DNA of 64,000 bases from Bacteroidia bacterium (lineage in GTDB: Bacteria; Bacteroidota; Bacteroidia; UBA4408): positions 3,871-67,870 of the forward strand of contig JACMRI010000001.1 of assembly GCA_014376525.1 (NCBI GenBank), read 5' to 3'. Both the position numbers and the translations under genes were made by a program. The notes under the pieces are model-generated. The model saw nothing but the letters and a program-made list of their open reading frames with translations, was not told the DNA's origin and searched no databases. This document shows positions 31,926 through 62,955 of this stretch, piece after piece (positions within the stretch are counted from its first letter, which is position 1; each line of letters starts with the position of its first letter).

Positions 31926-32300
31926 ATGAAAACAATAATAAACCCAACTAATGCCCCTGCACCAATAGGCCCTTATAGCCGTGCTATACAAGCTGGTAAT
32001 ACTATATATACAAGTGGCAATATTGCATTAGATGCTGATGGTAACTTATACATAGGCGACATTAAAACAGAAACTGAAATAGTAATGAATAACCTCAATA
32101 CTATTTTGCAAGCTGCTGGAGCATCGTTTAATAACGTAGTTAAAGCATCAATATTTATTGCCGACATGAACGACTTTGGAGCAATTAATGAAGTGTATGC
32201 ACGTTATTTTACCAACGATTTTCCTGCTCGAGAAACCGTACAAGTTGCACGATTACCCAAAGACGCTCGTGTCGAAATTAGTGTAATAGCGGTGGTGTAA
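31926..32300 (+). CDS. RidA/YjgF family reactive-intermediate deaminase
   Basis: 124 aa. PAPIGPYSRAI ... G.IALD..G ... PARETVQVARLP, a characteristic YjgF/chorismate-mutase-like pattern. Confidence 0.8.
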   Translation: MKTIINPTNAPAPIGPYSRAIQAGNTIYTSGNIALDADGNLYIGDIKTETEIVMNNLNTILQAAGASFNNVVKASIFIADMNDFGAINEVYARYFTNDFPARETVQVARLPKDARVEISVIAVV

Positions 32301-32331: not shown

Positions 32332-32943
32332 ATGATAACAGTAATTAATTATGGTGTTGGCAACTTGGGTTCGGTAATGAATATGTTTAAAAAAATAAAC
32401 GTAGAAGCCCAACTATCCACAAGTATTGACGATATTAAAAATGCAAAAAAACTGTTGTTACCTGGTATTGGTTCATTTGATATTGCAATGCAAAAGTTAA
32501 TTTCAACAGGATATTTACCTTATTTAAACCAAAAGGTAATGGAAGAAAAGGTACCTACATTGGGTATTTGTCTTGGTATGCAACTTATGACTAATGGAAG
32601 CGAAGAGGGAACACACAAGGGCCTAGGTTGGTTTGATGCAGAAACCGTAAAGTTTAATTTAGACACAAACATATATAAAATACCTCACATGGGTTGGAAC
32701 GATGTGTTTTTGAAACAAGCTAACAATACACTTACCGCCAATTTGCCTGTAGAGCCTCGTTTTTATTTTTGCCATAGTTACTTTGTTAAGTGTAAGAATG
32801 ATAACGAACAAATGCTAACGTGCAACTATGGCAATGAATTTACTTGCGGAATAAATAATGAAAACATATACGGTGTACAGTTTCACCCCGAAAAAAGCCA
32901 CAAATATGGTATGCAATTACTCAAAAACTTTTCAACGCTATAA
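32332..32943 (+). CDS. HisH-like glutamine amidotransferase subunit (WbuY-like, polysaccharide-cluster paralogue)
   Basis: Class-I GATase triad: GICLGMQ (Cys nucleophile) and HPEKS (His). N-terminal MITVINYGVGNLGSV. It is followed directly by a HisF-like gene and polysaccharide genes, not by other his genes. Confidence 0.8.
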   Translation: MITVINYGVGNLGSVMNMFKKINVEAQLSTSIDDIKNAKKLLLPGIGSFDIAMQKLISTGYLPYLNQKVMEEKVPTLGICLGMQLMTNGSEEGTHKGLGWFDAETVKFNLDTNIYKIPHMGWNDVFLKQANNTLTANLPVEPRFYFCHSYFVKCKNDNEQMLTCNYGNEFTCGINNENIYGVQFHPEKSHKYGMQLLKNFSTL

Positions 32944-32946
32944 ACA

Positions 32947-33711
32947 ATGAGAAGAATACGAGTAATACCCGCCTTATTAATTAAAGATGGCGGATTGTAT
33001 AAAGGCCAGCGTTTTAAAGATTTTAAATATGTGGGCGACCCCATAAACGCCATAAAAATATTTAACGATAAAGAAGTAGATGAGCTATGTGTGTTTGACA
33101 TAAGTGCTACCACAGCTAACAAAGCTCCTGACTATAAACTTATACAAGAGTTTGCTGGAGAATGTTTTATGCCTTGTTGCTATGGTGGAGGAATTAATAA
33201 ATTGGAACACGCACAACGTATATTTGAATTGGGTATAGAGAAAGTATCCATAAGCAGTGGTGCATTTAGTAACCCACAGCTCATAGGACAAATAGCCAAT
33301 CAATACGGAGCGTCTAGCACTGTTGTTACTATTGATTACAAAAAAAAAATATTTGGCAAAACTACTGTATATACGCATCAGGGTAGTTACAATACAAAAC
33401 TAACAGTACTAGAATGGGCTAAAACTGTTGAAAACGCTGGTGCAGGCGAAATTATATTAAATAGTATTGATAAAGATGGGTTGATGACAGGCTACGACTT
33501 AGACATGATACACGCGGTGAGTAATAGCGTAACCATACCTGTTATAGCATTAGGAGGCTGTGGTACAATAAGCGATATGGCTAAAGCCGTGGAGCAGGGT
33601 GCTAGTGCAGTAGCAGCAGGTAGCACATTTGTGTTTCATGGAAAGTTAAAAGGCGTACTTATAAATTTCCCTACACAAGACGAATTAAAGAAAGAATTAT
33701 ATATTCCATAA
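32947..33711 (+). CDS. HisF-like cyclase subunit (WbuZ-like glycosyl-amidation-associated protein)
   Basis: TIM-barrel HisF pattern RVIPALLIKDGGLYKG ... CYGGGI ... ILNSIDKDGLMTGYD ... IALGGCG. Confidence 0.8.
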   Translation: MRRIRVIPALLIKDGGLYKGQRFKDFKYVGDPINAIKIFNDKEVDELCVFDISATTANKAPDYKLIQEFAGECFMPCCYGGGINKLEHAQRIFELGIEKVSISSGAFSNPQLIGQIANQYGASSTVVTIDYKKKIFGKTTVYTHQGSYNTKLTVLEWAKTVENAGAGEIILNSIDKDGLMTGYDLDMIHAVSNSVTIPVIALGGCGTISDMAKAVEQGASAVAAGSTFVFHGKLKGVLINFPTQDELKKELYIP

Positions 33712-33718
33712 AAAAATA

Positions 33719-34984
33719 ATGATAAATAAAACTTTACTAAAATTCAAAAAACATACGTTATTTATACTTTATTTATTAATGATAATAGGAATTTGCTTTG
33801 GTGTATATAACTCTAGTGGCTTAGTTCATATTCAAAAAATAATTAGCTATTTAGTTGCATTAGTCTTAATATATATATTGGTAAATAAATATATTATTGA
33901 TAAAAATAGGAACGTTGATATAACATTTATGAATAATAGTAACAATGATGTACTGCTAAATATAGTAATAGGAGTATCACTACTTACTTGCATATTTCAC
34001 TTACTTTATCTGGGTTATATTCCTGTTTGGGAAACCTATAAATCTTTATATGGAATAGAAATTTCATTTATTAGAGAAGATGTTTTATCTAAATTAAACA
34101 CTACATTAAACTATCTAGTTGCATTTAATTTAAATGCTACAATTCCATTTATATTTTATCAAACGTTTAAGCGCAAAAAACGATATTTTGTTATTTTATA
34201 CATTATATTATTTTTTTATTTATTAAATGTATTACAAAAAAGTTATTTGCTATTTGCCATACTTCCATTGGCAATTCTTATGTTTAACCAAAAGTATTAC
34301 AAATTGGGTATTGCTACCATTGTATTGTCTACATTATCTATCTTTTTTATAATATGGCTATCTAACCCACAACTAAGAGCAAGTAGTACTGAAATAGATT
34401 TATATGCAAAAAAATATATTTCAAAAAACATTCATGCAAATACAGTTTTAGCGCCACAGGCAATACTTCCCAAAAGCTCAGTGTCTTCTCAAAATGTTGT
34501 ACTAAGTATATTTATTGGTTTTTATAATAGAATAGCTCTAGTACCTGGGCATGTTGTTAGTAAATGGTTTGATTATATACCCCAAAAATTACCTTATACA
34601 CATGGTTATAATATTAGGCCAATTGCATTAATTAGTGGAAAAAATTATCAAGATTATAATTACTCGAGAATGATTTATGATTTAGAATTTCCTGAAGACG
34701 CCAAAAACGGTTTAAAAGGAACTGCAAATGTTGCTCATTTTATGAATGATTACGCTAGTTTTGGTTTTTGGGGCTTATTTTTTTCAGCCCTGCAAGTAGT
34801 TATTATAATTCAACTTCTGCAACATATATTTAAAAATAATATAAGTGATTTAATATCATTTAACTTAAATTTTATGCTTGCGCTATCCTCTACTGCACTT
34901 ACCACAACTTTATTTTCAGGAGGATGGGCTTTAATGATTGTTTATTATTTTCTTTTTAATCACAAAAATGAAATTACTGATTAA
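33719..34984 (+). CDS. Polytopic membrane protein, putative polysaccharide (O-unit) polymerase Wzy/EpsG-like
   Basis: ~10 predicted TM helices. Very AT-rich. No catalytic motifs. It sits between hisF-like and wzx-like genes in a glycan cluster. Confidence 0.4.
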   Translation: MINKTLLKFKKHTLFILYLLMIIGICFGVYNSSGLVHIQKIISYLVALVLIYILVNKYIIDKNRNVDITFMNNSNNDVLLNIVIGVSLLTCIFHLLYLGYIPVWETYKSLYGIEISFIREDVLSKLNTTLNYLVAFNLNATIPFIFYQTFKRKKRYFVILYIILFFYLLNVLQKSYLLFAILPLAILMFNQKYYKLGIATIVLSTLSIFFIIWLSNPQLRASSTEIDLYAKKYISKNIHANTVLAPQAILPKSSVSSQNVVLSIFIGFYNRIALVPGHVVSKWFDYIPQKLPYTHGYNIRPIALISGKNYQDYNYSRMIYDLEFPEDAKNGLKGTANVAHFMNDYASFGFWGLFFSALQVVIIIQLLQHIFKNNISDLISFNLNFMLALSSTALTTTLFSGGWALMIVYYFLFNHKNEITD

Positions 34985-36227
34985 TAAAATAGCAACAAAT
35001 AATTTTTATGTTTTAACAATAGGAACAATTGCATCTCAATTTTTAGTACTTGCTACATTTTTTGCAATTGTTAAATTTAACATATACACACCAAAAGAGG
35101 TTGGAATACTAAATATAGTATTAAACAGTGTTGGTATACTGGCAGTATTGTTTAGTTTAAGATACGAGTCAGCTATTGCAAAATCAAATACTGAGGAAGA
35201 GGCCGAGCAAGTTTTTTGGATGTGTATTTGGTGGAATTTTGTTTTTTTATTTTTATTTAGTTCTTGTTTTTATTTTATTCCAACAGCAGCTATATACAAT
35301 CTTGGATTATCAAATCTAGGTGTTTATGTGTATTTAATCCCTTTATATACATTTGTATTAACCATAAATCAATTACTAATTTTAAAAATAAATAGAGATG
35401 GGAATTATAAATTAAACGCAGTTTCCAAAGTTTTAAATTCGTTATTGTTTATAATTATACTTATAGTAGCAACTTGTTTTTTTAAAAATTATTTTAGCGT
35501 ACTTAATGCGCAATTTTTTTCGTTATTAGTTGTAACACTTCTACTTTTATATAAGAATAAAAATCTTTTTAGAACTCATTTTGATGTACATACTTTTAAA
35601 TCGCTGAGCAAAAAATATATTTATTTACCAAAATATTTTTTAGTATCATCATTGTTTGATAAGCTAAGTGTGAATATGCCTTTGTTATTTATTAATAAAA
35701 TATTTGACGTATCTGTTGCTGGTTATTTTGGTTTTAGCGAGCGTATTTTAAGCAGTCCTTCAGGCGTAATTAGTTCTTCTATTTCTCAAATTTTATATCA
35801 AGATGTTTGCAAGAGAATTAATATTCAACAAGAACATTTTAGTATTTTTGCATCAAATCTTCGCAAGTTATTTTTGATGGGCATTTTGCCATTTTCAATA
35901 CTTATTATAGGCGGAGATTATCTTGCCAAAACATTATTAAGCGAGGAGTGGCAGGGAGTTGGCATATATTTACAATGTATAGCGGCTATACAATTTATAC
36001 GTTTTATGGTATCTCCGTTAAGTGTTATATTGCTTGCAAATAAAGAAACTAAAATACTTGCGATATGGCAAACAAGCTATTTTATTAGTGTTAGTGTTAT
36101 TATTGGTGTATCTTACTGGTACAAAAACATAAAACTATTTTTAATTTTACTTGTTATTATTGAATTTGTGCTGTATAGCATCTATCTTTACTTAATATAT
36201 AAATCAGCAAAAAAATCATTATTATAA
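34968..36227 (+). CDS. Polysaccharide flippase (Wzx / MOP superfamily)
   Basis: ~12 TM helices. Start placed at MKLLINKIATNNFYVLTIGTIASQFLVLATFF (ORF-track 34938 overlaps the upstream gene). The N-terminus is typical of polysaccharide biosynthesis protein / Wzx. Confidence 0.6.
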   Translation: MKLLINKIATNNFYVLTIGTIASQFLVLATFFAIVKFNIYTPKEVGILNIVLNSVGILAVLFSLRYESAIAKSNTEEEAEQVFWMCIWWNFVFLFLFSSCFYFIPTAAIYNLGLSNLGVYVYLIPLYTFVLTINQLLILKINRDGNYKLNAVSKVLNSLLFIIILIVATCFFKNYFSVLNAQFFSLLVVTLLLLYKNKNLFRTHFDVHTFKSLSKKYIYLPKYFLVSSLFDKLSVNMPLLFINKIFDVSVAGYFGFSERILSSPSGVISSSISQILYQDVCKRINIQQEHFSIFASNLRKLFLMGILPFSILIIGGDYLAKTLLSEEWQGVGIYLQCIAAIQFIRFMVSPLSVILLANKETKILAIWQTSYFISVSVIIGVSYWYKNIKLFLILLVIIEFVLYSIYLYLIYKSAKKSLL

Positions 36228-36230
36228 ATT

Positions 36231-38024
36231 ATGTGCGGCATATCTTTATTAGTTAACAAAACATTATCTAACGCTCACTTTGATGACATTCATACTATGA
36301 ATGAAACCATATTACATCGTGGTCCTGATGCTGGAAATACCTATGTGTATAACAATGTAGCACTAGGACATAGAAGACTTGCAATAATAGATTTGTCTGT
36401 TGATGGAGAACAACCAATGCATTGGAAGGATAAGTACACAATTATATTTAATGGCGAAATTTATAATTACATTGAAATAAAAAATGATTTGGAAAGTAAA
36501 GGATATATATTCTCTACCAAAACAGATACTGAAGTTATACTTGCTGCTTATGATTGTTATAAAGAAGACTGTTTAAACTATTTTAATGGCATGTGGGCAT
36601 TTGTTATAATAGATAAACAATCTAATAGTTTGTTTGGAGCTAGAGACCGTTTTGGTGTAAAACCCTTTCATTACTGCATTATCGACAAATACTTTGCCTG
36701 CTCGTCAGAAATTAAGCAACTTTTAACAATAGTACCTGCTGTTGCTAACGAACAAATTGTGGTTGATTTTTTGTCGCACGGAATAGTTGAACACAAAGAG
36801 GAAACGTTTTTTAAATCTATTTTTAAATTATTGCCCAGTACCTACTTTGTGTACAATTTAACAAGTAATAAAATCACATTCAAAAAATATTATGAAATTT
36901 TATTACGTAATGAAATATTAAATTACTCTTTGGAGGAAAGTATTAATGTTTATGAAAAAACTTTAGAAAGTGCAATAAAACTTAGAATGCGCTCTGATGT
37001 TAAAGTAGGTACCTGCTTAAGCGGAGGGCTTGATAGTTCTACTATTGCTGCAATAGCGTCTAAAATGTCAAACGGTAAATTTACAGCCATAACAGCATCG
37101 TCTACAGATAAACGAAATGACGAAACCAATTTTGCTAAAGAAGTAGTACAACATTGTAATTTAGATTGGAAAACAATATGCCCAACTACCACTGTTTTTT
37201 TTAATAATATTGCCGAAATTATTAAAACTCAAGAAGAACCTTTTGCATCTACGTCAATATTTATGCAATATTTTGTAATGAAAAGCGCAAAAGAAAATGG
37301 CTGTACTGTGTTGTTAGACGGTCAGGGAGGAGATGAAACGTTATTTGGATATGAACGTTATTACGCCTCATTATTTAAACATTTAAGTTTTATAGATAAG
37401 ATAAAGACCTTTAGAGCTGCAACTAAAAATTCAAAACTAACAGCTAAAACACTTGTAGCTTACCTGTTTTATTTTAATAATTTTTTTATTAGAAAATTGT
37501 TTTTAAAAAAAAGAAGTGCGTTTTTAAAACCAAATTATATAAATAAAATAGATTTTTCGATAATTAAAGATGCTATTAAATCTAACAATAATGTAGTTAA
37601 TTTACAAATATTAGAAATTACCAAAACAACAATGCCTCAATTGTTAAAATACGAAGACCGTAATTCAATGCGTCATTCTATAGAAACTCGCTTACCATTT
37701 ATTGATTATAATTGTGTTGAAGTTGCGCTATCCATAAACAATAATTACAAAATATATAATGGCTGGACTAAATATATTTTGCGCAACATTACACAAAAAC
37801 ATTTACCAAGCAGTATTGCATGGCGCAAAAATAAGGTTGGATTTGAGTCGCCTCAAGACGAATGGCTTAAAAATAAAAATTATTTTTTACCATTAATAAA
37901 ATCTTCATTACTATTAAAAAAAATAACAAAAACTGACTTTGATTTTGAAACTATTAGTGATAACAATCTATTTTGGAAATTATATTGTGTAGCCGCTTGG
38001 GAAAAAGAATTTATTTTAAAATAA
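36231..38024 (+). CDS. Asparagine synthase (glutamine-hydrolysing) family amidotransferase (AsnB-like)
   Basis: N-terminal Ntn nucleophile MCGISLLV. HRGPDAGN, LAIIDLS and the PP-loop SGGLDSSTIAAIA of the synthetase domain are present. Confidence 0.8.
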   Translation: MCGISLLVNKTLSNAHFDDIHTMNETILHRGPDAGNTYVYNNVALGHRRLAIIDLSVDGEQPMHWKDKYTIIFNGEIYNYIEIKNDLESKGYIFSTKTDTEVILAAYDCYKEDCLNYFNGMWAFVIIDKQSNSLFGARDRFGVKPFHYCIIDKYFACSSEIKQLLTIVPAVANEQIVVDFLSHGIVEHKEETFFKSIFKLLPSTYFVYNLTSNKITFKKYYEILLRNEILNYSLEESINVYEKTLESAIKLRMRSDVKVGTCLSGGLDSSTIAAIASKMSNGKFTAITASSTDKRNDETNFAKEVVQHCNLDWKTICPTTTVFFNNIAEIIKTQEEPFASTSIFMQYFVMKSAKENGCTVLLDGQGGDETLFGYERYYASLFKHLSFIDKIKTFRAATKNSKLTAKTLVAYLFYFNNFFIRKLFLKKRSAFLKPNYINKIDFSIIKDAIKSNNNVVNLQILEITKTTMPQLLKYEDRNSMRHSIETRLPFIDYNCVEVALSINNNYKIYNGWTKYILRNITQKHLPSSIAWRKNKVGFESPQDEWLKNKNYFLPLIKSSLLLKKITKTDFDFETISDNNLFWKLYCVAAWEKEFILK

Positions 38025-38041
38025 TAGTTAGGCACTAAATT

Positions 38042-39169
38042 ATGAACTTACATATATATCCTTCTGTTTTTAAAAACGAATCTCGCATACTTAAAGAAAC
38101 CAAAAGTTGTATTGATTTAGGCATAACTAATACGGTTGTGGTATGCGCGTTACACACTAATGGAGTAAACGAAAACGACATTATAGACAACAACAGAAGT
38201 GTAAAACGTTTAAAAATACCATTTGGAAATGCAATAGGAGGCAAGCAAGCAATGTTTAAACTATTTTTCTTTAATATATATACTATCAAATATGGCTTAA
38301 AAATTAAGCCACAACTTATTAATTGCCATAGTTTAACAGTACTAGTAAGTGGGGTTGTACTAAAATTATTTACTGGTGCAAAACTAGTTTACGACACACA
38401 TGAATTAGAAACCGAAAAAGCAGGAATGGGTAATGTAAGACGTATTATTGCTAAGTTGTGGGAACGAGTTTTAATTCAATTTGTAAATGGAGTTATAACT
38501 GTAAGTCCGTCAATTAACGATTGGTATATTAAAACGTATAAACTCAATAATTGCGTGTGCGTGCGAAACATTCCTTACCAACAAATTAATGCACCATCAA
38601 AAAATAGTATTTTAAGAGATGAATTTAAAATAGAAAGTGATGCTATCATTTATATTTATCAAGGATTATTTTCGAGAGGTAGGGGTATAGAGCTTATGCT
38701 TTCTACTTTTGAAAAACTCCCCATAAACAACCATCTTATACTTATGGGTTATGGACCATTAGAGGTACTTATACAAAAATATACCGCACAATTTCCAAAC
38801 ATACATTTTAAAGCAGCTGTTGCACCAGCAGATATTATAAAATATACGTCAAGCTGTGATGTAGGAATAGTGCTTATTGAAAACATTTCGTTGAGTTATT
38901 ATTATAGTTTGGCTAATAAGGTGTTTGAATATATGCTATCGGGTCTTCCTATTATAACAAGCAATTTTCCTGATATGCAAAATTTGGTAACCACATACAA
39001 TTGTGGGTGGAGCATAGAACCAAGTATTGAACAACTAAAAAAAATTATTTTACAGTTAACTACTCAAGAAATAGAAAATAAAAAAAATAATTTAAGCACA
39101 ATTAATAAAAATTTGTGTTGGGAAAAGGAAGAGTGTAAATTGCAACAATTTTATAAACAATTAGTTTAA
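38042..39169 (+). CDS. Glycosyltransferase family 4 (GT-B, GT1 superfamily)
   Basis: C-terminal E-x7-E region EYMLSGLPIITSNFPDMQNLV. GT-B two-domain size (375 aa). Confidence 0.7.
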   Translation: MNLHIYPSVFKNESRILKETKSCIDLGITNTVVVCALHTNGVNENDIIDNNRSVKRLKIPFGNAIGGKQAMFKLFFFNIYTIKYGLKIKPQLINCHSLTVLVSGVVLKLFTGAKLVYDTHELETEKAGMGNVRRIIAKLWERVLIQFVNGVITVSPSINDWYIKTYKLNNCVCVRNIPYQQINAPSKNSILRDEFKIESDAIIYIYQGLFSRGRGIELMLSTFEKLPINNHLILMGYGPLEVLIQKYTAQFPNIHFKAAVAPADIIKYTSSCDVGIVLIENISLSYYYSLANKVFEYMLSGLPIITSNFPDMQNLVTTYNCGWSIEPSIEQLKKIILQLTTQEIENKKNNLSTINKNLCWEKEECKLQQFYKQLV

Positions 39170-39196
39170 TTTTAAACAGAAAATAAAACGTTACAC

Positions 39197-40324
39197 ATGA
39201 ATTTAAATTATAAAATATGCACACGTTGTATAATGGATACAACCGATAGCAACATTACTTTTAGTACTCTTGGCGTATGTAACCATTGCTTAAATTATGA
39301 CGAACAAAAAAAGTTAAGAGTTTGGGATGGCACACAAGCAAAAATAGAATTAGAAAAAATAGTAAATAAAATAAAAAAAACAGGCTTAAATAATACCTAC
39401 GATTGTATAATAGGAGTTAGCGGAGGAGTTGATAGCACTTATGTTGCATATGTAGTTAAGCAACTTGGATTACGCCCACTTGCTATACATTTTGATAACA
39501 ATTGGAATTCTGAACTTGCAGTAAGTAATATTGAAAAAACATTAACAACACTAGATATAGACCTGTATACTTACGTTATTGATTGGCCTGAATTTAAAGA
39601 TTTACAACTATCTTTTCTTAAAGCTTCAACTCCTGATGGAGAAGTACCAAGCGACCACGCAATAAATGCCCTACTATACAAGGAAGCTAATAAGAGAGGG
39701 ATTAAGTATATAATAAATGGAATGAATTATGCATCAGAATCTATTGCCGTGCACTCGTGGGCGTATGGGCATACAGATTGGAAATATATTAATGGAGTTC
39801 AAAAAAAATTGGGCTCTTTAAATTTAAAAAATTACCCACACTTTAATTTTTTACAATTATTTTATTGGACATTTATTAAAAAAATTAAATCAGTAGCAAT
39901 ACTAAATTTTATAGACTATAATAAAGAAGCTGCAATGGATGTTTTACAAAAAAAATTAAATTGGAAATATTACGGTGGCAAGCATTACGAGTCTATATAT
40001 ACGCGTTTTTATCAAGGATACATTTTACCTAAAAAATTTAATATTGATAAACGTAGAGCGCACTTATCTGGCTTAATTCTATCGGGGCAAGCAACCCGCG
40101 ACCAAAGTTTAATTGATATTAAAACTAATCCGTTAGATTTAAATGTAGAAAAAACAGACAAGGACTTTGTTATGAAAAAGTTAAATTATTCAGAAGTTGA
40201 ATTTAACACAATGATGAACGCTCCATTAAAAACATTTAACGATTACCCAAACAATCACAATCTAGTAATGCGTATTAAAAACATTGTTAATTTAATGCGT
40301 AAAAATGGACTTTATTCAAAGTAA
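39197..40324 (+). CDS. N-acetyl sugar amidotransferase (WbuX/LfnA-like PP-loop ATP pyrophosphatase)
   Basis: N-terminal Cys pairs CTRCIMDTTDSNI ... CNHCLNY (zinc ribbon). PP-loop GVSGGVDSTYVAYVV. The layout matches the LPS-biosynthesis N-acetyl sugar amidotransferase family that partners HisH/HisF paralogues. Confidence 0.7.
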   Translation: MNLNYKICTRCIMDTTDSNITFSTLGVCNHCLNYDEQKKLRVWDGTQAKIELEKIVNKIKKTGLNNTYDCIIGVSGGVDSTYVAYVVKQLGLRPLAIHFDNNWNSELAVSNIEKTLTTLDIDLYTYVIDWPEFKDLQLSFLKASTPDGEVPSDHAINALLYKEANKRGIKYIINGMNYASESIAVHSWAYGHTDWKYINGVQKKLGSLNLKNYPHFNFLQLFYWTFIKKIKSVAILNFIDYNKEAAMDVLQKKLNWKYYGGKHYESIYTRFYQGYILPKKFNIDKRRAHLSGLILSGQATRDQSLIDIKTNPLDLNVEKTDKDFVMKKLNYSEVEFNTMMNAPLKTFNDYPNNHNLVMRIKNIVNLMRKNGLYSK

Positions 40325-40330
40325 ATATTA

Positions 40331-40903
40331 ATGATAAATAAAATTACACCACTAACGCTAACCGCAGTAGCTAAAGTGCACAAAGAGGTTTACTTAAAAA
40401 ATCATTTTTCTAGTTTAATGTCACCTCAAAAAACAGAAGAGTTTTACAGCTATCAAATAGCGCACAACGAGCACTGCTATAGTTACACCTTCAACAACGA
40501 AATTGTAGCATTTATTATTTCAGGAAAAAACACCAATAAAGCAGTTAATTCATTTATTATGAATAATAAACTTTATTTATTATTTGTAACCATTAGTAAT
40601 CCTCGCTTTTTATTACAAAAAGCGAAACAATTTATAAGCGTATTATTGAGCAATAATAAAGAGAAATTTGAAATACAGCCATTTAGATTACTTAGTGTAG
40701 CAGCCTCTTCAAAGGTGCAAGGCAAAGGTGTTGTGGTGCGTTTTTTTAACGAATATCATAGCGTTTTAAAAACACATGGTATTAATAGTTATGGCTTATC
40801 TGTTAAATCGGACAATACTCGCGCTATAAAACTATACGAAAAATTAGGTTTTGAAATTGAACATATTGAAAAAACCTCAATATATTATAAAATAACTTTA
40901 TAA
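40331..40903 (+). CDS. GNAT-family N-acetyltransferase
   Basis: C-terminal GNAT motif LSVKSDNTRAIKLYEKLGFEI. Acetyl-CoA binding region VQGKGVVVRFFNE. Confidence 0.5.
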   Translation: MINKITPLTLTAVAKVHKEVYLKNHFSSLMSPQKTEEFYSYQIAHNEHCYSYTFNNEIVAFIISGKNTNKAVNSFIMNNKLYLLFVTISNPRFLLQKAKQFISVLLSNNKEKFEIQPFRLLSVAASSKVQGKGVVVRFFNEYHSVLKTHGINSYGLSVKSDNTRAIKLYEKLGFEIEHIEKTSIYYKITL

Positions 40904-40924
40904 CCTCACTTAAGAAACAACACT

Positions 40925-41557
40925 ATGAACCCTAAAAAAATACTTGTACTTGCACCACATACTGATGATGGTGAATTTGGCTGTGGTGGAACTATTAACA
41001 AACTTATAAGTGAGGGTAACGAAGTATACCTTGCTGCTTTTTCGGCTTGCCAGCAATCTGTACTACCACAATTTCCTTCAGATATATTGATAACAGAAGT
41101 AAAAGCAGCTACCATAAAATTAGGTATAAAACCCGAAAACTTAATATTGTTTAATTATGATGTACGCACATTTAACTATCGCAGGCAAGATATACTGGAC
41201 GATTTAATAAAATTACGCGCAAAAATAAAACCCGATATGGTATTTATACCATCACTCAACGATATACACCAAGACCATAAAACAATAGCCGAAGAAGGAT
41301 TGCGTGCATTTAAATTTAGTACCATACTATGCTACGAAATGCCTTGGAACAATATTACGTTTACCACCTCATCGTTTTTTATATTAACTGAAGCCAACGT
41401 GCAGGCAAAAGTAAATGCTTTAGGCGAATACAAATCGCAAGCACATCGCCCCTACGCTAACGAACGTTTTATACGCTCACTTGCCAATACACGTGGCGTA
41501 CAAATAGATCAAGAATACGCTGAAGCATTTGAAGTATTGCGCTGGATTAATAATTAA
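40925..41557 (+). CDS. PIG-L/LmbE-family N-deacetylase
   Basis: ILVLAPHTDDGEFGCGGTI and a downstream HQDH motif are hallmarks of the PIG-L zinc-dependent de-N-acetylase family. Confidence 0.75.
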   Translation: MNPKKILVLAPHTDDGEFGCGGTINKLISEGNEVYLAAFSACQQSVLPQFPSDILITEVKAATIKLGIKPENLILFNYDVRTFNYRRQDILDDLIKLRAKIKPDMVFIPSLNDIHQDHKTIAEEGLRAFKFSTILCYEMPWNNITFTTSSFFILTEANVQAKVNALGEYKSQAHRPYANERFIRSLANTRGVQIDQEYAEAFEVLRWINN

Positions 41558-41571
41558 ACAAATTTAAAAAA

Positions 41572-42483
41572 ATGGTAACTTTACAGGCTATACAAGATAA
41601 ATATAAAAACTACACCGTATTAGGCGAGTTAAATACACCTATAGTTAAAATAGTACAGCTCAATATAGCCCTACAACCCAATGAAATGGCTTGGTGTGCT
41701 GACAAAAACAAAGAGCAACTTTTACAACTATCCGCAGGTACTGTAATAGTAAGTAACGAAGTATATTTATGGTTTATTGATGTAAAAAAAGAATTTAACA
41801 ACCTCAATTTTATAATTGTTGATGCAGCTCGCCGAGCATTTTTAAAAATAGTACAAACGTTTTTTACGGTAACAAAACCTGTAGGCTCAGTAGCCGCAAG
41901 TGCATATATTCACCCATCAGTTATTATAAATACAAGCAAGTGTAACATAGGGCACAACGTTGTTATAGAGGCTAATTGTACTATTGGTAATAATGTAGAG
42001 ATTGGCAACAACACGGTGATACTTGAAGGAACAATAATTAACGACAACGTAAAAATAGGCTGCAACAATACTATAGGAGGAGTAGGATTTGGTTATGAAA
42101 AAGACGAAAACGGTAATTACGAGCTTATACCGCACATAGGCAACGTAATTATAGGTGCAGGCGCCGAAATTGGCAGCAATAATTGTATTGACAGGGCGGT
42201 ATTAGGAAGTACTTTAATAGAAAAAAATGTAAAAATAGATAACCTTGTACATATTGCACATGGAGTTATTTTACGAGAAAACTGCCTTATAATAGCCAAT
42301 GCCATGATTGGTGGAAGTACCGAAATTGGCAAAAACACATGGGTAGCACCATCAACATCTATTATGCAAAAATTAAAAATTGGCAACGATGCTTTAATAG
42401 GTATGGCTGCTGTAGTACTTAAAGATGTAGAAGATAGAAGTGTAATGGTAGGTAGCCCCGCTAAAAAAATAAAAACACTATAA
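41572..42483 (+). CDS. LpxD-like left-handed beta-helix (hexapeptide) N-acyltransferase
   Basis: An LpxD-like N-terminal domain is followed by >10 hexapeptide repeats (IGHNVVIEANCTIGNNVEIGNNTVILEGTIINDNVKIG...). Confidence 0.65.
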   Translation: MVTLQAIQDKYKNYTVLGELNTPIVKIVQLNIALQPNEMAWCADKNKEQLLQLSAGTVIVSNEVYLWFIDVKKEFNNLNFIIVDAARRAFLKIVQTFFTVTKPVGSVAASAYIHPSVIINTSKCNIGHNVVIEANCTIGNNVEIGNNTVILEGTIINDNVKIGCNNTIGGVGFGYEKDENGNYELIPHIGNVIIGAGAEIGSNNCIDRAVLGSTLIEKNVKIDNLVHIAHGVILRENCLIIANAMIGGSTEIGKNTWVAPSTSIMQKLKIGNDALIGMAAVVLKDVEDRSVMVGSPAKKIKTL

Positions 42484-42486
42484 CCA

Positions 42487-43503
42487 ATGTTAGTATCAGT
42501 AATTATACCTTGCCGAAACGAAGTTAAGTATATTGAAGAGTGCATTAATGCTATATACAACTCTAGTAATATAGATTTTGAAACTATTGAGGTATTAATT
42601 ATTGATGGAAAAAGTAACGATGGTACACTGCAAATTATCAAACAATTACAACAAAAGTACCCAACATTAAAACTTATTGAAAACACATTACAACTTACAC
42701 CCTATGCATTTAATTTGGGTATAAATAATAGTGTAGGAAAGTATGTTCAAATTATAGGAGTGCGACAAATAGTAAAACCCAATTACATAAGTAATGCAAT
42801 ACACACACTAACCAACAATTCCGAAATTTGGTGTGTTGGAGGAAAAGTAATAAATGTATTTGAAAACAATGATAGCGAAACAATTGCAGCAGCCATGAGT
42901 AGTTGGTTTGGTGTAGGTGGCGGAAATTTTAGAATACTAACACAATCTGCTTTTGTTGATACCGTAGGTACACCTATGTATCCACGTGCTGTGTTTGATA
43001 AAATTGGATTATTTGACCAAGATTTAGTACGAAATCAAGATGACGATTATAATTATAGAGTTACTTATGCTGGCGGAAAAATATTTTTAAACGTTGATAT
43101 TGCTGTAAAGTATTATGTACGTGCCTCGTTTCAAAATTTATTCAAACAATACTATCAGTATGGGTATTGGAAAGTATTTGTAAATAAAAAACATAATACA
43201 CTCACCACATTACGTCAATTAGTACCCGCGTTGTTTGTATTATATTTACTATCATTAATAGTAATAGCAGGTGTTTTACCAAATATATATTTTGGAGTAT
43301 ATTTTGTGGGAATGTTAATTTACATCCTATCCGCATTATATGCTGCATCTAAAGTTAGTACAATTAGTACTAATTATTTTAAAATAGTAGGCACTTTTTT
43401 TATATTACATCTATCTTACGGTTTTGGCTATTTGGAAGGATTAATGCAGTTTGTAATACTTAAACGTGCCCCCAAAAACAGCAGTAAAACTTTAAGTAGA
43501 TAA
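42487..43503 (+). CDS. Glycosyltransferase family 2 with C-terminal TM helices
   Basis: VSVIIPCRNE N-terminus, DG.S.D and D.D-type motifs (QDDDYNYR), and a C-terminal hydrophobic region. Confidence 0.75.
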   Translation: MLVSVIIPCRNEVKYIEECINAIYNSSNIDFETIEVLIIDGKSNDGTLQIIKQLQQKYPTLKLIENTLQLTPYAFNLGINNSVGKYVQIIGVRQIVKPNYISNAIHTLTNNSEIWCVGGKVINVFENNDSETIAAAMSSWFGVGGGNFRILTQSAFVDTVGTPMYPRAVFDKIGLFDQDLVRNQDDDYNYRVTYAGGKIFLNVDIAVKYYVRASFQNLFKQYYQYGYWKVFVNKKHNTLTTLRQLVPALFVLYLLSLIVIAGVLPNIYFGVYFVGMLIYILSALYAASKVSTISTNYFKIVGTFFILHLSYGFGYLEGLMQFVILKRAPKNSSKTLSR

Positions 43504-43517
43504 CAAACCAACAACAT

Positions 43518-44753
43518 ATGTTAAACAACATAAAATATAGCAGTACTTCTATTATACTATCGTTACTGTGCTTTAGTTTACCATTATTTAAATTTTTAGC
43601 ACCTCTATTTATAATTTTATTGTGCGTAGATACTTTGTTTAATCTAGCTAAAAAAGATTTTTTTACGGCAACCAACAAAAGTTTATTATTACTTATTATG
43701 TTTTATTTGCTAACCATTATAAGTTATTTTTTTGCTTATAACAAAAGTATTGCTGGTTTTGAGTTAGAAGTAAAACTTTCGTTCTTAATACTTCCCTTAT
43801 GTTTTATTTTTAATAACAAAATTAAAAAGGTAACGATTGTTTTATTATTAAAATCCTTTGTATTTGGTTGTTTAGTAAGTTCTTTGCTATGCTTAGTGCA
43901 TAGCTCTAAAATATATTTTAGCACTCATCTTTTTGATTCGTTTACCTACGACAATATTTCTTTTTTTCATCACTCTAGTTACTTTGCAATGTATTTACAA
44001 GTTGCATTATTAGTTTCACATTATTTAATTAAAAGCACATCTACCACTTCTTTATTTCGTGCGGTGTATTCATTTTGTATTATAATTTTTGCGGTAATTA
44101 TTATTTTATTAGCTGCAAAAATTAGCATTTTGCTTCTTGCTATATACATACCTTATGGTTTATATGTATTAGTTTTAAAAAACAACAAATGGTTTGTAAA
44201 CGCTTTAGTTGTTGTATTTTTCCTTACTACAACTCTGTTTATTTTCAATAAAAGCGCAGTCTTACAATTACGCATAAGGGAAGGAGTTTCCAATGCTTTA
44301 ATTCCTGTAACATCAATCAATGCTAAAAGCCCCGATGTTTCATCTTCGCAAATGCGAAAATTAATTTGGCAAGATGCCATCACACTTATTAAACAAAAAC
44401 CATTAGGCTATACCACTGGAGACGTGGACTCAGCATTAGTTATACAATACATAAAAACTGAAAACGCACTAGCAACACAAAAACATTTAAATGCTCACAA
44501 TCAATTTCTACAAACTACTTTGGCACTGGGTATAGTAGGTTTGCTAACGTTACTTTCGCTACTTTATTATCCATTATTCAAACTCAACAAAGAGGCTTGG
44601 TTTTTTTATTTATTTTTCTCACTCATTATTACTTTTAATTTTTTAACAGAATCTATGTTACAAACACAGTCAGGCATTGTGTTTTTCGTGTTAAGTTATT
44701 GTATACTCGTGTCTAGCAATACCAAAACTATTACTCAGTATAAAATGGAATAA
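43518..44753 (+). CDS. O-antigen ligase-family membrane protein (Wzy_C domain; WaaL/Wzy-like)
   Basis: ~11 TM helices. The periplasmic-loop motif NAHNQFLQTTLALGIVGL matches the H-N-x-x-L conserved region of the O-antigen ligase family. Confidence 0.55.
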   Translation: MLNNIKYSSTSIILSLLCFSLPLFKFLAPLFIILLCVDTLFNLAKKDFFTATNKSLLLLIMFYLLTIISYFFAYNKSIAGFELEVKLSFLILPLCFIFNNKIKKVTIVLLLKSFVFGCLVSSLLCLVHSSKIYFSTHLFDSFTYDNISFFHHSSYFAMYLQVALLVSHYLIKSTSTTSLFRAVYSFCIIIFAVIIILLAAKISILLLAIYIPYGLYVLVLKNNKWFVNALVVVFFLTTTLFIFNKSAVLQLRIREGVSNALIPVTSINAKSPDVSSSQMRKLIWQDAITLIKQKPLGYTTGDVDSALVIQYIKTENALATQKHLNAHNQFLQTTLALGIVGLLTLLSLLYYPLFKLNKEAWFFYLFFSLIITFNFLTESMLQTQSGIVFFVLSYCILVSSNTKTITQYKME

Positions 44754-44935
44754 ATACTTATTTTAGCAATATTATTTAAAATGATTATAAATTACAATCG
44801 TATTCAATTTAACTATGTTTTTGTAACCTTTCGCACTATTTTGAATAGTAAATTTGCATAAATAAAATACTGGTATTAACTTTTTTAATAACAATAAAAT
44901 AAACTCTAATAATAACTAATAATCAACAAAAACAA

Positions 44936-45733
44936 ATGGAAGTAAAAAACAAAATCGGATTCCTAAATTCGGGTATTGGTCAAAAAGTAACAATGGCACT
45001 TACAGGCCTATTCTTGTGCATATTTTTAATAGTGCATTTAACAGGTAATTTTCAGTTATTCCACCACGATTCAGGTTTAGCATTTAATGAATATGCGGTG
45101 TTTATGACTACCTTTCCGCCTATCAAATTTGTATCGTATGGTTTGTATGCTATGATACTTTACCACGCATTTAAAGGCTTACATCTTGCATACAAAAACA
45201 CTAAAGCACGCCCAGTAAAATATCAAGTGGAAAAAGCAAGTGCCAACAGCCCCTGGACAAGCCGTTACATGGGAGTATTAGGTACTATTATTTTAGTGTT
45301 TATATGTACACACATGAGTAATTTTTGGTGGGAATATCACAACGGACCTATTCCACTTACCAAGTACGAAACCAGCTTGGTAAACGGTACTATGACAGCA
45401 AGTACCTATGTGGGCGAAATAGCAGGCAAAAAGCTAGAGTACAACAATGCCGATAATACTTTACACACCGTTATTATTAAAGATTTGTACGTAGTAGTGG
45501 CAGAAGCTTTCCACAACATTGGCTTAGTTATACTCTATGTATTAGCAATGGCTGCATTAGGCTTTCACTTGGTGCATGGTTTTCAAAGTTCTTTCCAAAC
45601 CGTTGGTTTTAATCATGTACGCTATACCAAGGTTATACAAGCCATAGGTATATATGTTTTTGGAATAGCTATTCCTATTGCATTTGCGGCTATGCCTATT
45701 TATTTTTATTTATTAAGCATCCACTTAATTTAA
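44936..45733 (+). CDS. sdhC: Succinate dehydrogenase / fumarate reductase cytochrome b subunit (Bacteroidetes type)
   Basis: Five TM helices with conserved His residues. It lies immediately upstream of sdhA and sdhB. Confidence 0.6.
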   Translation: MEVKNKIGFLNSGIGQKVTMALTGLFLCIFLIVHLTGNFQLFHHDSGLAFNEYAVFMTTFPPIKFVSYGLYAMILYHAFKGLHLAYKNTKARPVKYQVEKASANSPWTSRYMGVLGTIILVFICTHMSNFWWEYHNGPIPLTKYETSLVNGTMTASTYVGEIAGKKLEYNNADNTLHTVIIKDLYVVVAEAFHNIGLVILYVLAMAALGFHLVHGFQSSFQTVGFNHVRYTKVIQAIGIYVFGIAIPIAFAAMPIYFYLLSIHLI

Positions 45734-45758
45734 CTTTTTTTAAAACTATTTATTTGAT

Positions 45759-47675
45759 ATGATACTAGATTCAAAAATACCTACAGGTCCGTTAGACCAA
45801 AAATGGGGAAAATATAAAGGCGATGCCAAATTGGTAAATCCAGCCAATAAGCGTAAATTAGAAATTATAGTAGTCGGTTCAGGGCTTGCAGGTGCTTCGG
45901 CAGCAGCAAGTTTTGCCGAGTTAGGTTACTCTGTAAAAGTATTTTGTTACCAAGATAGTGCGCGTCGCGCACACAGTATAGCTGCACAAGGAGGTATTAA
46001 TTCAGCCAAAAATTATAAGAACGACGGCGATAGCGTGCATCGTTTGTTTTATGATACTATAAAAGGGGGCGATTTCCGCTCAAGAGAAGCCAACGTATAT
46101 CGCCTTGCCGAAGTATCTACAGGTATCATAGACCAATGTGTGGCGCAGGGAGTACCGTTTGCACGTGAGTATGGGGGGTTGTTAGATAATCGGTCATTTG
46201 GTGGGTCGCAAGTATCACGTACATTTTATGCAGCAGGACAAACTGGCCAGCAATTATTATTAGGAGCGTATTCGGCCATGATGCGTCAAGTAGGCTTAGG
46301 TACAGTAAAAATGTATGGTCGCCACGAAATGCACGAGGTTGTTACTATAGATGGAGTAGCAAGGGGTATTATAGCTCGTAACTCCGTTAATGGAGAATTG
46401 GAACGCCACTTTGGACACGCAGTAGTATTAGCAACTGGTGGCTACGGTAACGTATTCTTTTTAAGTACTAATGCTATGGGTTGCAACGTTACTGCGGCTT
46501 GGAAAGCGCACAAAAAAGGTGCAGCATTTGCTAATCCTTGTTTTACACAAATACACCCTACTTGTGTGCCTGTAAACGGCGATTATCAATCAAAACTTAC
46601 GTTAATGAGCGAATCGTTGCGCAATGATGGGCGTATATGGGTGCCAATGCATAAGGAAGATTGTAAAAAAGATCCTCGTCAAATAGCCGAAGAAGACCGT
46701 GATTATTATTTGGAACGCAAATATCCATCATTCGGTAACTTAGCACCACGAGACATTGCAAGCCGTGCTGCCAAAGAAGCCTGCGATGAAGGACGTGGAG
46801 TTGGCGAAAGCGGTTTAGCCGTTTATTTAGATTTTGCTGATGCTATAAAACGCAAAGGATACGATGCTATAAAAGCAAGTTACGGTAACTTGTTTGATAT
46901 GTACAAACACATTACCAACGAAAATCCTTACGAAATACCTATGCGCATATATCCTGCAGTGCATTATACAATGGGCGGTTTATGGGTAGATTATGAATTA
47001 ATGACATCAGTAAAAGGTTTGTATGCCGCTGGCGAATGTAACTTTAGCGACCACGGTGCTAACCGCCTTGGGGCATCTGCACTTATGCAAGGTTTGGCCG
47101 ACGGTTACTTTGTATTGCCATATACCATTGGTAACTACTTAGCCGGCGAAATATTTACAAAACCAATAGACTTAAATCACCCTGCGTTTGTGGAGGCCGA
47201 AAACATAGTTAAAGAACGTTTTAATAAACTATTAAGTATAAAAGGAACTAGAACCGTAGATGATTTTCACCGTGAGTTAGGTAAAATTATTTGGGATTAT
47301 TGTGGTATGGCTCGTACACGCGAAGGCTTAACCAAGGCTAGAGTTATGGTACAAGAATTGCGTGCACAGTTTTGGAAAGATGTAAAAGTAAGCGGCACTA
47401 CCGATTCTCTAAACCCCGATTTGGAAAAAGCAGCACGTGTTGCCGACTTTTTGGAATTAGGAGAATTAATGATTGTAGATGCACTAACCAGAGAGGAATC
47501 GTGCGGAGGACACTTCCGAACCGAGTATCAAGATGCAGGCGAAGCACAACGTAACGATGAACTTTTTGCATTTGTATCGGCTTGGGAATATACTGGCGAT
47601 AATAAAGATGAAATATTGCACAAAGAACAATTAGTGTACGAAAATATTAAATTACAAGTACGTAGTTATAAATAA
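45759..47675 (+). CDS. sdhA: Succinate dehydrogenase / fumarate reductase flavoprotein subunit
   Basis: FAD dinucleotide-binding [14 protein letters not shown]. Covalent-FAD His region [13 protein letters not shown]. Catalytic HYTMGG and RLGASAL motifs. Confidence 0.9.
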
Positions 47676-47727
47676 TAGTTACGCTTATTACACGCCTTTT
47701 ATCCAACTTATTTAAAACATTTACACT

Positions 47728-48474
47728 ATGAAATTTACATTACAAATATGGCGACAAGCCAACAATAAAGCACAAGGCAAAATGGTGGATTATCAAATTG
47801 ATAATATCAATGCCAATATGTCGTTCCTTGAAATGATGGACGTGCTTAACGACCAAATAATACGCAAAGGCGAAGAGCCAGTTGCCTTTGACCACGATTG
47901 CCGCGAGGGTATATGCGGTATGTGTAGTATGCACATAAACGGAAGAGCTCATGGGCCTTTAAAATTAAGTACCACTTGCCAGTTATATATGCGCAATTTT
48001 ACTGATGGCGAAACTATTACTATAGAGCCGTTTCGTGCTAAAGCATTCCCAGTATTAAAAGATTTGATTGTTAACAGAGGCGCCTTCGATAATATACAAG
48101 CAGCAGGCGGATTTATATCAGTAAGTACTGGGCAAGTAAAAGACGCCAACAATATTCCTATCAACAAAGAAGATGCAGATATGGCATTTTATGCAGCAGC
48201 CTGCATAGGTTGTGGTGCTTGTGTAGCAGCTTGCAAAAATGCTTCGGCATCGTTGTTTGTATCGGCTAAAGTATCGCAATACGCATTATTACCACAAGGA
48301 CAAACCGAACGTAACGAGCGTGTACTTGCCATGGTAAATCAAATGGAAGTAGAAGGCTTTGGGAGCTGTACTAACACTGGTGCTTGCGAGGCCGAATGCC
48401 CTAAAGGAATAAGCATAAGCAACATAGCACGCATGAACCGCGATTATATTTCTGCGGCAATTTCGGCTAAATAA
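47728..48474 (+). CDS. sdhB: Succinate dehydrogenase / fumarate reductase iron-sulfur subunit
   Basis: 2Fe-2S motif CREGICGMC. 4Fe-4S / 3Fe-4S motifs [11 protein letters not shown] and [12 protein letters not shown]. Confidence 0.85.
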
Positions 48475-62259: not shown

Positions 62260-62955
62260 TTATCTTAACAATAAACATAAACCCAAAGCAACGACTACCA
62301 AAAATAGCTTTAGTATTAATTGTTGTTTACCTCTATTAAACTCAAATAATAACGATGTACCAATGTGTAAAAATAAACCGCATACAAAAGCTAATACATA
62401 ATGCACATCAAACACAAGTTCTGTATATTGTGTAATATATTGTGCCGCCAAAGCCCCACCAACCGTGCTTAGGCCTAGCATACTTATTAAAGTTAGGTTA
62501 ATAAATGAGCTGTAATTAAGGTGCTTAATAAGTTGCATTAAAATAATTGTTACAGGTATATTATGCACTATTAAGCCTACTAACAAACTATTACCATTAA
62601 CACTTATGAGCAAGGGTGTGCCTTCTACAAAACTGTGCAACAACAATGCGATATAACTTATATAAAATTTTACTTGCCCAGCATTATGCACATGCCCATG
62701 TTCTAAACCATTGCTATAACGTTCTAAACCTAATTGAAGTAGTAATCCTAACAAAATAACTATACCCGCATACGACTTATTGGGTACGTGTTCAAACACT
62801 TCGGGCAAAAAATTAATAACCGTAATACACAACAGCAAAGCGGCTGTAAATATGGAAATAGGCTTAGCATATTGCTTGTTAAGTGTATGCACATAAGCAT
62901 AGCTCGCACCAACAAGTACGGGTAGTGCCACTAATAAAACGAATAAATAATTCAA
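62260..62955 (-). CDS. ZIP-family metal cation transporter (ZupT-like)
   Basis: 8 TM helices. His-rich loop LEHGHVHNAG. HSFVEGTPL and HNIPVT motifs resemble the ZIP HNxxEG signatures. Confidence 0.5.
   Translation of the reverse strand: MNYLFVLLVALPVLVGASYAYVHTLNKQYAKPISIFTAALLLCITVINFLPEVFEHVPNKSYAGIVILLGLLLQLGLERYSNGLEHGHVHNAGQVKFYISYIALLLHSFVEGTPLLISVNGNSLLVGLIVHNIPVTIILMQLIKHLNYSSFINLTLISMLGLSTVGGALAAQYITQYTELVFDVHYVLAFVCGLFLHIGTSLLFEFNRGKQQLILKLFLVVVALGLCLLLR

Follow-up and report, generated by a model that had tools for sequence, protein, structure and literature searches.

The closest described counterparts of the locus analysed here are the N-acetyl sugar amidotransferase (NASAT) systems: WbuX/WbuY/WbuZ of Escherichia coli O145, WbpG of Pseudomonas aeruginosa O5 and AglX/AglY/AglZ of Methanococcus maripaludis. 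The NASAT family is defined by two motifs, CXXCXn[GN]XCXXC and SGGXDS (Gao et al., PMC10607449), and its one solved structure is that of LpNASAT of Legionella (PDB 8WEX). Other glycan loci carry AsnB-type enzymes (WbpS, WbqG and PGN_1234) which are known to form uronamides (PMC7468200), and in a freshwater Sphingomonas exopolysaccharide (EPS) locus the NASAT trio stands beside an exosortase-type amidotransferase (PMC11340318). The subject of this work is a gene cluster at positions 32332-44753 of a 64,000-nucleotide stretch of DNA (the window) from an uncultured Bacteroidia bacterium (GenBank assembly GCA_014376525.1, contig JACMRI010000001.1, positions 3,871 to 67,870 of the forward strand), which encodes the three NASAT protein families together with an AsnB-type enzyme and further sugar-modifying proteins. 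We consider it likely that the cluster is of the Wzx/Wzy type and makes an undecaprenyl-linked surface heteropolysaccharide, an O-antigen being the simplest case, with an unusually rich sugar-tailoring set. This reading is based on family membership, motifs, folds and synteny; the individual catalytic steps, their sequence and the nature of the sugar are all inferred from these.

The cluster consists of 12 co-directional genes on the + strand, separated by gaps of 3-27 bp or slightly overlapping. An initial annotation had described it as a surface-polysaccharide cluster with a glycosyl-amidation module made up of hisH/hisF paralogues and a WbuX-type enzyme, and with an AsnB-like enzyme besides; hidden Markov model cut-offs, motifs, residues, fold comparison and synteny bear this description out, and every gene that it named lies where it was placed, on the + strand. 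Its inventory was right in the genes listed and left out the GNAT, PIG-L and LpxD-like tailoring genes. The full set is:

32332-32943, +: HisH-type class-I glutaminase (putative WbuY/AglY role), 203 aa; TIGR01855, PF00117; MBC7410852.1
32947-33711, +: HisF2/AglZ-type (beta/alpha)8 barrel, 254 aa; NF038364; MBC7410853.1
33719-34984, +: multi-spanning membrane protein, probable Wzy-type polymerase from fold comparison, 421 aa; no Pfam family
34938-36227, +: Wzx-type (MOP family) flippase; PF13440 Polysacc_synt_3, PF01943 Polysacc_synt
36231-38024, +: AsnB-type glutamine-dependent amidotransferase, 597 aa; TIGR01536; GATase_7 and Asn_synthase
38042-39169, +: GT4 glycosyltransferase, 375 aa; PF00534, PF13692, PF13439
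39197-40324, +: WbuX/NASAT-family N-acetyl sugar amidotransferase, 375 aa; TIGR03573; MBC7410858.1
40331-40903, +: small GNAT N-acetyltransferase, 190 aa; PF00583, 3.3e-8
40925-41557, +: PIG-L/LmbE-family de-N-acetylase, 210 aa; PF02585, 1.2e-17
41572-42483, +: LpxD-like left-handed beta-helix (LbH) N-acyltransferase with shortened C-terminus, 303 aa; MBC7410861.1
42487-43503, +: GT2 glycosyltransferase with hydrophobic C-terminal region, 338 aa; PF00535, PF13641
43518-44753, +: Wzy_C-domain membrane protein, probable WaaL-type ligase, 411 aa; PF04932, 9.6e-16

A probable acetamidino system and the AsnB-like enzyme

The HisH-like protein scores 224.9 bits against TIGR01855 (cut-off 105.4), a model that does not discriminate WbuY-type from histidine-pathway HisH, and also matches PF00117; its Cys-His-Glu triad is visible in the translation (Cys in GICLGMQ, His and Glu in FHPEKS) and the protein is predicted to supply ammonia. 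The gene ends 3 bp upstream of hisF2, whose product reaches 357.6 bits against the AglZ/HisF2 model NF038364 (cut-off 310), 203.1 against the hisF model TIGR00735 (below the cut-off of 294.55) and 293.7 against the WbuZ model TIGR03572, narrowly under its cut-off of 299.7. In an alignment to Thermotoga maritima HisF, a reference sequence partly confirmed by PDB alignments, the window protein is 39% identical over 227 residues and retains Asp130 and the ammonia-gate residues Arg5, Glu46, Lys99 and Glu167, position 11 being Leu instead of the catalytic Asp and position 98 Glu instead of Asp. The same two replacements occur in all the WbuX-linked HisF-like copies extracted from related loci (17/17). 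Asp11 and Asp130 of T. maritima HisF are the catalytic aspartates of the cyclase. Since Asp11 is lost and the hisF cut-off is missed, HisF2 cannot be the histidine-pathway cyclase, which answers indirectly the initial annotation's question whether these are the histidine-pathway genes; it is presumed to be the partner of HisH and the conduit for its ammonia. The pair thus resembles imidazole glycerol phosphate synthase in its sequence identity, barrel, gate residues, Asp130 and intact HisH triad, and differs from it in the two replaced aspartates, the hisF score and the lack of a his operon context among the scanned ORFs of the window.

The third protein, a PP-loop ATP pyrophosphatase with a zinc ribbon, matches the WbuX model TIGR03573 with 285.8 bits (cut-off 203.2), aligning to model positions 2-343 of 344, as the initial annotation had expected of it. 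Both family motifs, which that annotation had noted as CxxC...CxxC and SGGVDS, can be read in the translation: the tetracysteine motif as C8-x-x-C11 ... G26-V-C28-x-x-C31, and the PP-loop as S75-G-G-V-D-S80, in which both alignments show no variation at S75, G76, G77, D79 or S80. A Foldseek search with its AF2 model (pLDDT 88.6) gave 8WEX as the best PDB match (8wex_B; E 8.1e-14, TM 0.68/0.66 over 384 columns, full length), the runner-up PP-loop enzymes reaching a TM of 0.26; the window protein shares about 14% identity with LpNASAT, whose full chain of 468 residues is 93 residues longer. WbuX has at least 7998 homologues at E <= 1e-30, with a best match of 65% among GTDB species representatives; its GenBank entry (MBC7410858.1) already bears the name 'N-acetyl sugar amidotransferase'. 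The suggestion that the chemistry may be novel is consequently retained for the product and withdrawn for the enzymes, which belong to known families and whose genes are already in GenBank.

A search with the WbuX protein found nine genome loci (related loci are designated by L and a number), and in eight of them the hisH-hisF2 pair is directly upstream of wbuX; in the ninth, L005 of a Holophagae MAG (metagenome-assembled genome), hisF2 is upstream of wbuX and hisH just downstream, on the other strand. An intermediate order, interrupted like that of the window, hisH-hisF2-TM-wzx-wbuX (TM, a membrane-protein gene), occurs in L013 (GCA_945887405.1). The association of hisH, hisF2 and wbuX is not due to chance, and the three products are best read as one three-part acetamidino system. 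Like the NASAT systems described above, it combines the same three protein families, motifs and fold within a glycan locus; unlike them, wbuX is four genes away from hisH/hisF2, no fnl (FucNAc) or wbp genes are nearby and the host is an uncultured member of the Bacteroidia.

Some related loci are of interest in themselves. L004 (Pedobacter sp. MW01-1-1, NZ_CP179926.1, 157-11107) holds two complete HisF-like/HisH/WbuX sets about 5 kb apart, as do L002 and L007. The upstream set of L004 (hisF-like 3015-3860, hisH 3860-4516, WbuX 4516-5745) is preceded by NeuC-like, nucleotidyltransferase and PseF-like genes and its HisF-like protein retains Asp11 and carries Glu at position 130. Downstream, the second set belongs to the AglZ/HisF2 type found in the window, with Leu11. 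This suggests two HisF paralogue classes for sugar amidination, one of them tied to nonulosonic acids. In two uncultured Bacteroidota (L008, 10001-11044; L009, 10001-11104) only one of the four zinc-ribbon cysteines is left in the WbuX homologues (CAISLMDN ... GISNYY), which have an intact PP-loop and still adjoin hisH-hisF2; some members of the family may therefore do without the zinc site.

The AsnB-like protein scores 449.3 bits against TIGR01536 (cut-off 267.1), contains the GATase_7 and Asn_synthase domains and displays in its translation an N-terminal MCGI (Cys2 nucleophile) and an SGGLDS PP-loop; the nearest solved structures are a hydroxyamidotransferase and AsnB. Because it has a Cys glutaminase and a PP-loop of its own and both AsnB domains, it should be self-sufficient for glutamine-dependent amidation, and we regard it as a second, self-contained amidotransferase. 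The 'three amidotransferase systems' of the initial annotation are accordingly reduced to two, HisH, HisF2 and WbuX being one and AsnB the other. By analogy with WbpS (P. aeruginosa O6), WbqG (E. coli O121) and PGN_1234 (Porphyromonas gingivalis), with which it shares the AsnB architecture, the N-terminal Cys glutaminase, the PP-loop and the location in a surface-glycan locus, it probably converts a uronic acid into a uronamide.

Putative N-acyl tailoring genes and a recurrent gene pair

Three further genes, for the GNAT, PIG-L and LbH proteins, encode candidate tailoring enzymes. The GNAT protein (40331-40903) had no homologue in any related locus retrieved and only a marginal PDB match; its family matches were RimI-like only, with none to TIGR03019 (the VimA family) in the NCBIfam scan, and it appears to be a variable gene. 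The metal motifs of PIG-L, HTDD and HQDH, are present in its translation. The LbH protein scores 195.5 bits against NF002060 (below 207) and 190.5 against TIGR01853 (below 242.5), aligning to model positions 5-316 of 345, so that about 30 C-terminal model residues are absent. Its best PDB matches are LpxD, it is 50-59% identical across many Bacteroidota, and 26 homologues all share His227 and His230 (in DNLVHIAHGV) and the GGVGFGYE motif; the catalytic His presumably corresponds to His239 of E. coli LpxD.

A scan of metagenome contigs with the LbH family returned 80 loci, in which adjacency was counted where the flank sufficed. PIG-L adjoins LbH in 20 of the 21 loci whose LbH is at least 45% identical to that of the window, in 14/23 at 38-45% identity and in 2/9 below 38%. 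The PIG-L proteins are far better conserved (up to 81% identity in the metagenome loci and 90% in L101) than the LbH proteins (about 50-78%). Of 56 loci, 11 have an asnB homologue no more than 3 kb from LbH, at times between PIG-L and LbH, and 3 have the wbuX/hisF2 set within 8 kb of it, to which the Holophagae locus L005 has to be added, where the PIG-L/LbH pair adjoins wbuX. Full-text literature searches for a pair of PIG-L and an LpxD-like protein found no description of it. The pair is a recurrent module, apparently uncharacterised. A Flavobacterium psychrophilum O-polysaccharide paper was considered as a precedent and set aside, the genes there being PglD homologues and an acyl carrier protein (ACP) system.

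We infer, by analogy, that PIG-L and LbH act as a couple which deacetylates and then reacylates an amino sugar. They resemble LpxC/LpxD of lipid A biosynthesis and VimE/VimA of Porphyromonas in that a deacetylase gene is directly followed by an N-acyltransferase gene, the acyltransferase here being homologous to LpxD and keeping its catalytic His motif. They differ from LpxC/LpxD in that the deacetylase is PIG-L/LmbE and not LpxC and that the LpxD-like protein is without the C-terminal part of the model, and from VimE/VimA in that the deacetylase is not CE4 and a FemAB-like VimA is absent. Membership of the Wbp/Vim linking-sugar pathway of Porphyromonas and Tannerella was rejected, since the deacetylase and acyl-transfer families differ and the window has no Wbp genes; the relation is one of analogy only. 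As AsnB recurs beside the pair, the substrate is suggested to be an amino-uronic acid. The initial annotation had proposed an acetamidino sugar such as FucNAm: the acetamidino module holds, FucNAm is only one option as no L-FucNAc (fnl) genes are in the window, and the recurring company of AsnB and of a deacetylase/N-acyltransferase pair points at least as well to an amino-uronic acid.

A wider role for the pair can be imagined. PIG-L and the shortened LpxD-like protein would form a widespread module, mainly of Bacteroidota, accompanied in a subset of loci by conserved GT2, Wzy_C, DegT and small phosphoglycosyl transferase genes, which swaps the N-acetyl group of an amino-(uronic) sugar for another acyl group (possibly a hydroxyacyl group from ACP); the same sugar would be amidated by AsnB and amidinated by WbuX, and it might be a conserved reducing-end or linking sugar, with Wzy_C as the missing ligase or transferase for lipopolysaccharide (LPS), protein O-glycans or type IX cargo. 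Taken as a whole, this proposal is speculative and in our judgement improbable.

Assembly genes, proposed pathway and competing readings

The likely true start of Wzx is the ATG at 34969, giving 419 aa, and the gene call on a Logan contig is likewise 419 aa. In that copy (L011, SRR9661224) the neighbouring membrane protein has 417 aa with a different C-terminus, and its gene overlaps wzx by 4 bp, compared with 47 bp in the window (34938-34984); either a small difference in assembly sequence at the junction or the choice of start codon would account for this.

The 421-aa protein encoded at 33719-34984, called wzy-like in the initial annotation, has no Pfam or NCBIfam match even at E <= 10. It had three homologues by word search and 568 representatives by profile search. 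Foldseek returned no match to its confident model (pLDDT 92.3), and among solved structures a fold comparison placed FtsW, RodA and WaaL closest to it. Its gene adjoins wzx in three independent locus types. It thus resembles the Wzy/WaaL/SEDS proteins in modelled fold and in its position beside wzx and differs from them in having no detectable Pfam or NCBIfam sequence similarity; on the fold, the wzy-like label is probably right, the protein being a SEDS/WaaL-type Wzy polymerase of an unmodelled family. The Wzy_C protein (43518-44753) is a probable WaaL-type ligase, with a polymerase or O-oligosaccharyltransferase role possible. Its homologues (27-42% identity) occur in related loci next to PIG-L-LbH-GT2 genes.

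Copies of the GT2 gene with 40-70% identity follow LbH in L018, L019, L020, L030 and L101 and end the clusters of L013 and L016; GT2 is directly after LbH in 5/16 close loci, four of which also carry a DegT aminotransferase and an initiating enzyme of about 196 aa (Bac_transf), a Wzy_C gene being usually present too. In L016, L018, L019, L020, L022 and L030, genes for DegT and a small Bac_transf lie in the same locus, mostly directly beside the Wzy_C gene; in the window, the Wzy_C gene is directly followed by sdhC. As a lead for the conserved GT2 we considered and discarded FpgA, a GT2 of F. psychrophilum (PMC4293000), whose neighbour is a WbhW-like gene.

The closest relative found, L101, keeps the PIG-L-LbH-GT2 block (90, 78 and 70% identity) and carries upstream of it a PglD-like acetyltransferase, a GT4 and two unmodelled membrane proteins, with no amidotransferases. 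The amidotransferase genes therefore look like part of a variable cassette that was added to a better-conserved block, a layout that is usual for serotype-variable glycan loci.

From these assignments the following pathway can be proposed. HisH would hydrolyse glutamine and the ammonia would travel through the HisF2 barrel; with its PP-loop, WbuX would adenylate a sugar N-acetyl group at the carbonyl oxygen (ATP giving AMP and PPi), and the ammonia would displace AMP to give an acetamidino group. The AsnB-like enzyme would turn a sugar carboxylate, probably of a hexuronic acid, into a carboxamide. PIG-L would strip an N-acetyl group and the LpxD-like acyltransferase, perhaps with GNAT, would re-acylate the freed amine, following the N-acyl exchange logic of LpxC/LpxD and VimE/VimA. 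GT4 and GT2 would extend the unit, Wzx would flip it, the 421-aa protein would polymerise it and the Wzy_C protein would ligate it; the initiating transferase and the genes for nucleotide-sugar precursors would be located elsewhere in the genome.

Several points weigh against this reading. A Wzx/Wzy-dependent cluster is recognised by its flippase, polymerase and WaaL-type ligase genes, for all of which there are candidates here, and by an initiating transferase and nucleotide-sugar genes inside the cluster, which are missing. The family scans (Pfam and NCBIfam), which took in nearly all the larger open reading frames (ORFs) of the window, two at 62260-63970 being left out, found no phosphoglycosyl transferase, DegT, dehydratase, epimerase, Wzz or export genes in the 64 kb, and a tblastn search of the whole window with the DegT and Bac_transf proteins from a related locus gave no match. 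This agrees with the initial annotation, which had reported neither an initiating phosphoglycosyl transferase nor nucleotide-sugar synthesis genes; the only gene of sugar-precursor type seen is phosphoglucosamine-mutase-like (GlmM-like, 57572-58969). As initiating transferase, Wzz and export genes are all missing, the label 'O-antigen' is chosen for simplicity and is not a demonstrated identity. The 64 kb contain no wbp, fnl, pgl or NulO genes either that would point to a particular substrate sugar. The polymerase and ligase roles of the 421-aa and Wzy_C proteins could be swapped, and wbuX, in the same gene string, lies 5.5 kb downstream of hisH/hisF2 with four genes between. The AsnB-like protein scores 334.6 bits against TIGR03108 (eps_aminotran_1, an exopolysaccharide amidotransferase model with a cut-off of 816.9), which is its second-best model and is matched only in its first 378 positions; WbpS, WbqG and PGN_1234 are described as best matching this model (PMC7468200), and it is this score and that description which set the window protein apart from them. 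As the score is far under the cut-off, the protein is not filed as a member of the WbpS/WbqG family, only as working alike. Finally, no in vitro reconstitution of WbuX-family chemistry, this locus included, was found in the literature, and the use of ATP by NASAT was deduced from the structure (PMC10607449).

The most serious competitor is that the product is another undecaprenyl-linked glycan (the variable outer glycan from the general system of protein O-glycosylation in Bacteroidota, an anchor resembling the A-LPS of Porphyromonas for type IX cargo, or a capsule), made by the same amidotransferase enzymology for another destination; we give it a small though real chance. Wzy_C is also the domain of O-oligosaccharyltransferases, the oligosaccharyltransferase (OTase) and the ligase of Bacteroidota are still unidentified, and acetamidino groups occur occasionally on Bacteroidota O-glycans (PMC12871550). 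Porphyromonas A-LPS involves the AsnB-type WbpS, a deacetylase and acyl transfer on a diamino-uronic acid (PMC7468200), and the genome encodes type IX secretion cargo, the CHU_C protein at 54397-57462. However, the locus has neither the metG-wzx start nor the two terminal conserved glycosyltransferases of LFG loci (PMC12871550), for which reason assignment to an LFG-type O-glycosylation locus was not adopted; the deacetylase is PIG-L and not CE4 like VimE, the GNAT protein is small and is not a FemAB-type VimA, the scanned ORFs include no Wza/Wzc capsule export genes, and the polymerase-type and ligase-type protein pair is the classical O-antigen pattern. Sequence alone cannot tell whether the glycan ends up as O-antigen, as protein-linked glycan or as a T9SS (type IX secretion system) anchor.

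The other two alternatives concern single genes and are far less probable. That LbH is the housekeeping lipid A N-acyltransferase, and that it and PIG-L are conserved core genes merely flanking a variable cluster and not acting on its sugars, is very unlikely: the GenBank label LpxD, the best solved homologues, the 50-59% identity across Bacteroidota and the rise in G+C to 0.32-0.34 over 40-43 kb speak for it, whereas both LpxD cut-offs are missed, the C-terminal model residues are lacking, the pair also stands next to wbuX in Holophagae, and LbH was never beside lpxA, lpxC or fabZ in the loci examined, where its neighbours are PIG-L, GT2, Wzy_C, AsnB, DegT, Bac_transf or WbuX in glycan loci. 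It is hardly conceivable that hisH and hisF are the histidine-biosynthesis genes of the organism, placed beside a polysaccharide cluster by accident. GenBank does name them 'imidazole glycerol phosphate synthase subunit HisH/HisF', and HisH passes the hisH equivalog model; on the other side stand the HisF2 scores, Leu11 in all 17 WbuX-linked copies compared, the company of the same gene pair with wbuX in every related genome locus and the absence of hisA, hisB, hisD and hisIE from the scanned ORFs. The Wzx/Wzy-type surface heteropolysaccharide remains the reading that we favour.

Annotation, significance and surroundings of the cluster

The cluster proteins are deposited in GenBank as MBC7410852.1-MBC7410862.1 ('Bacteroidia bacterium' MAG), and an exact-sequence look-up found the same cluster in one Logan assembly, SRR9661224. 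As both proteins score under the present curated cut-offs, the names HisF (MBC7410853.1) and 'UDP-3-O-(3-hydroxymyristoyl)glucosamine N-acyltransferase' (MBC7410861.1) are probably wrong. The analysis thus offers a functional re-reading of genes labelled HisH, HisF and LpxD in GenBank, and a warning for metabolic reconstructions of MAGs, in which such paralogues should not pass for histidine or lipid A genes. A further prediction is that the surface glycan of this Bacteroidia lineage bears amidino groups, amides and non-acetyl N-acyl groups; such decorations are positively charged or zwitterionic and, in better-known bacteria, affect the interactions with phages, complement and antimicrobial peptides. 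The recurrent PIG-L/LpxD-like gene pair is the more interesting by-product.

The cluster is flanked upstream by a Rid-family gene (31926-32300) and downstream by sdhCAB (44936-48474). Compared with 0.33-0.41 in the flanks, its G+C content is low in two stretches, about 33-40 kb and 43-45 kb, where it falls to 0.27-0.30. Scans of 30.5-45.8 kb for sigma-70 promoters (88, against 91.9 in shuffled sequence) and intrinsic terminators (7 against 7.0) were uninformative on operon structure. About 80 bp upstream of sdhC, at 44849-44856, the sequence TAAATTTG occurs, which fits the Bacteroidota -7 promoter consensus TAnnTTTG; it suggests that transcription of sdhCAB is independent of the glycan cluster.

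The remainder of the window is Bacteroidota housekeeping DNA (CHU_C cargo, Porph_ging, DUF4476, lysS, a two-component system and the GlmM-like mutase). The product of the CHU_C gene (54397-57462) has 1021 aa and a CHU_C sorting domain for type IX secretion; in the gene, the GC skew is very high (0.28-0.29), and short tandem repeats rich in GGC/GGT at 55476-55532 and 55795-55850 indicate glycine-rich stretches in the protein. An ORF of 478 aa at 17978-19414 joins an AmgK-like N-acetylmuramate/GlcNAc kinase region (residues 8-323) to a RapZ-like C-terminal region (residues 342-470), an unusual fusion.

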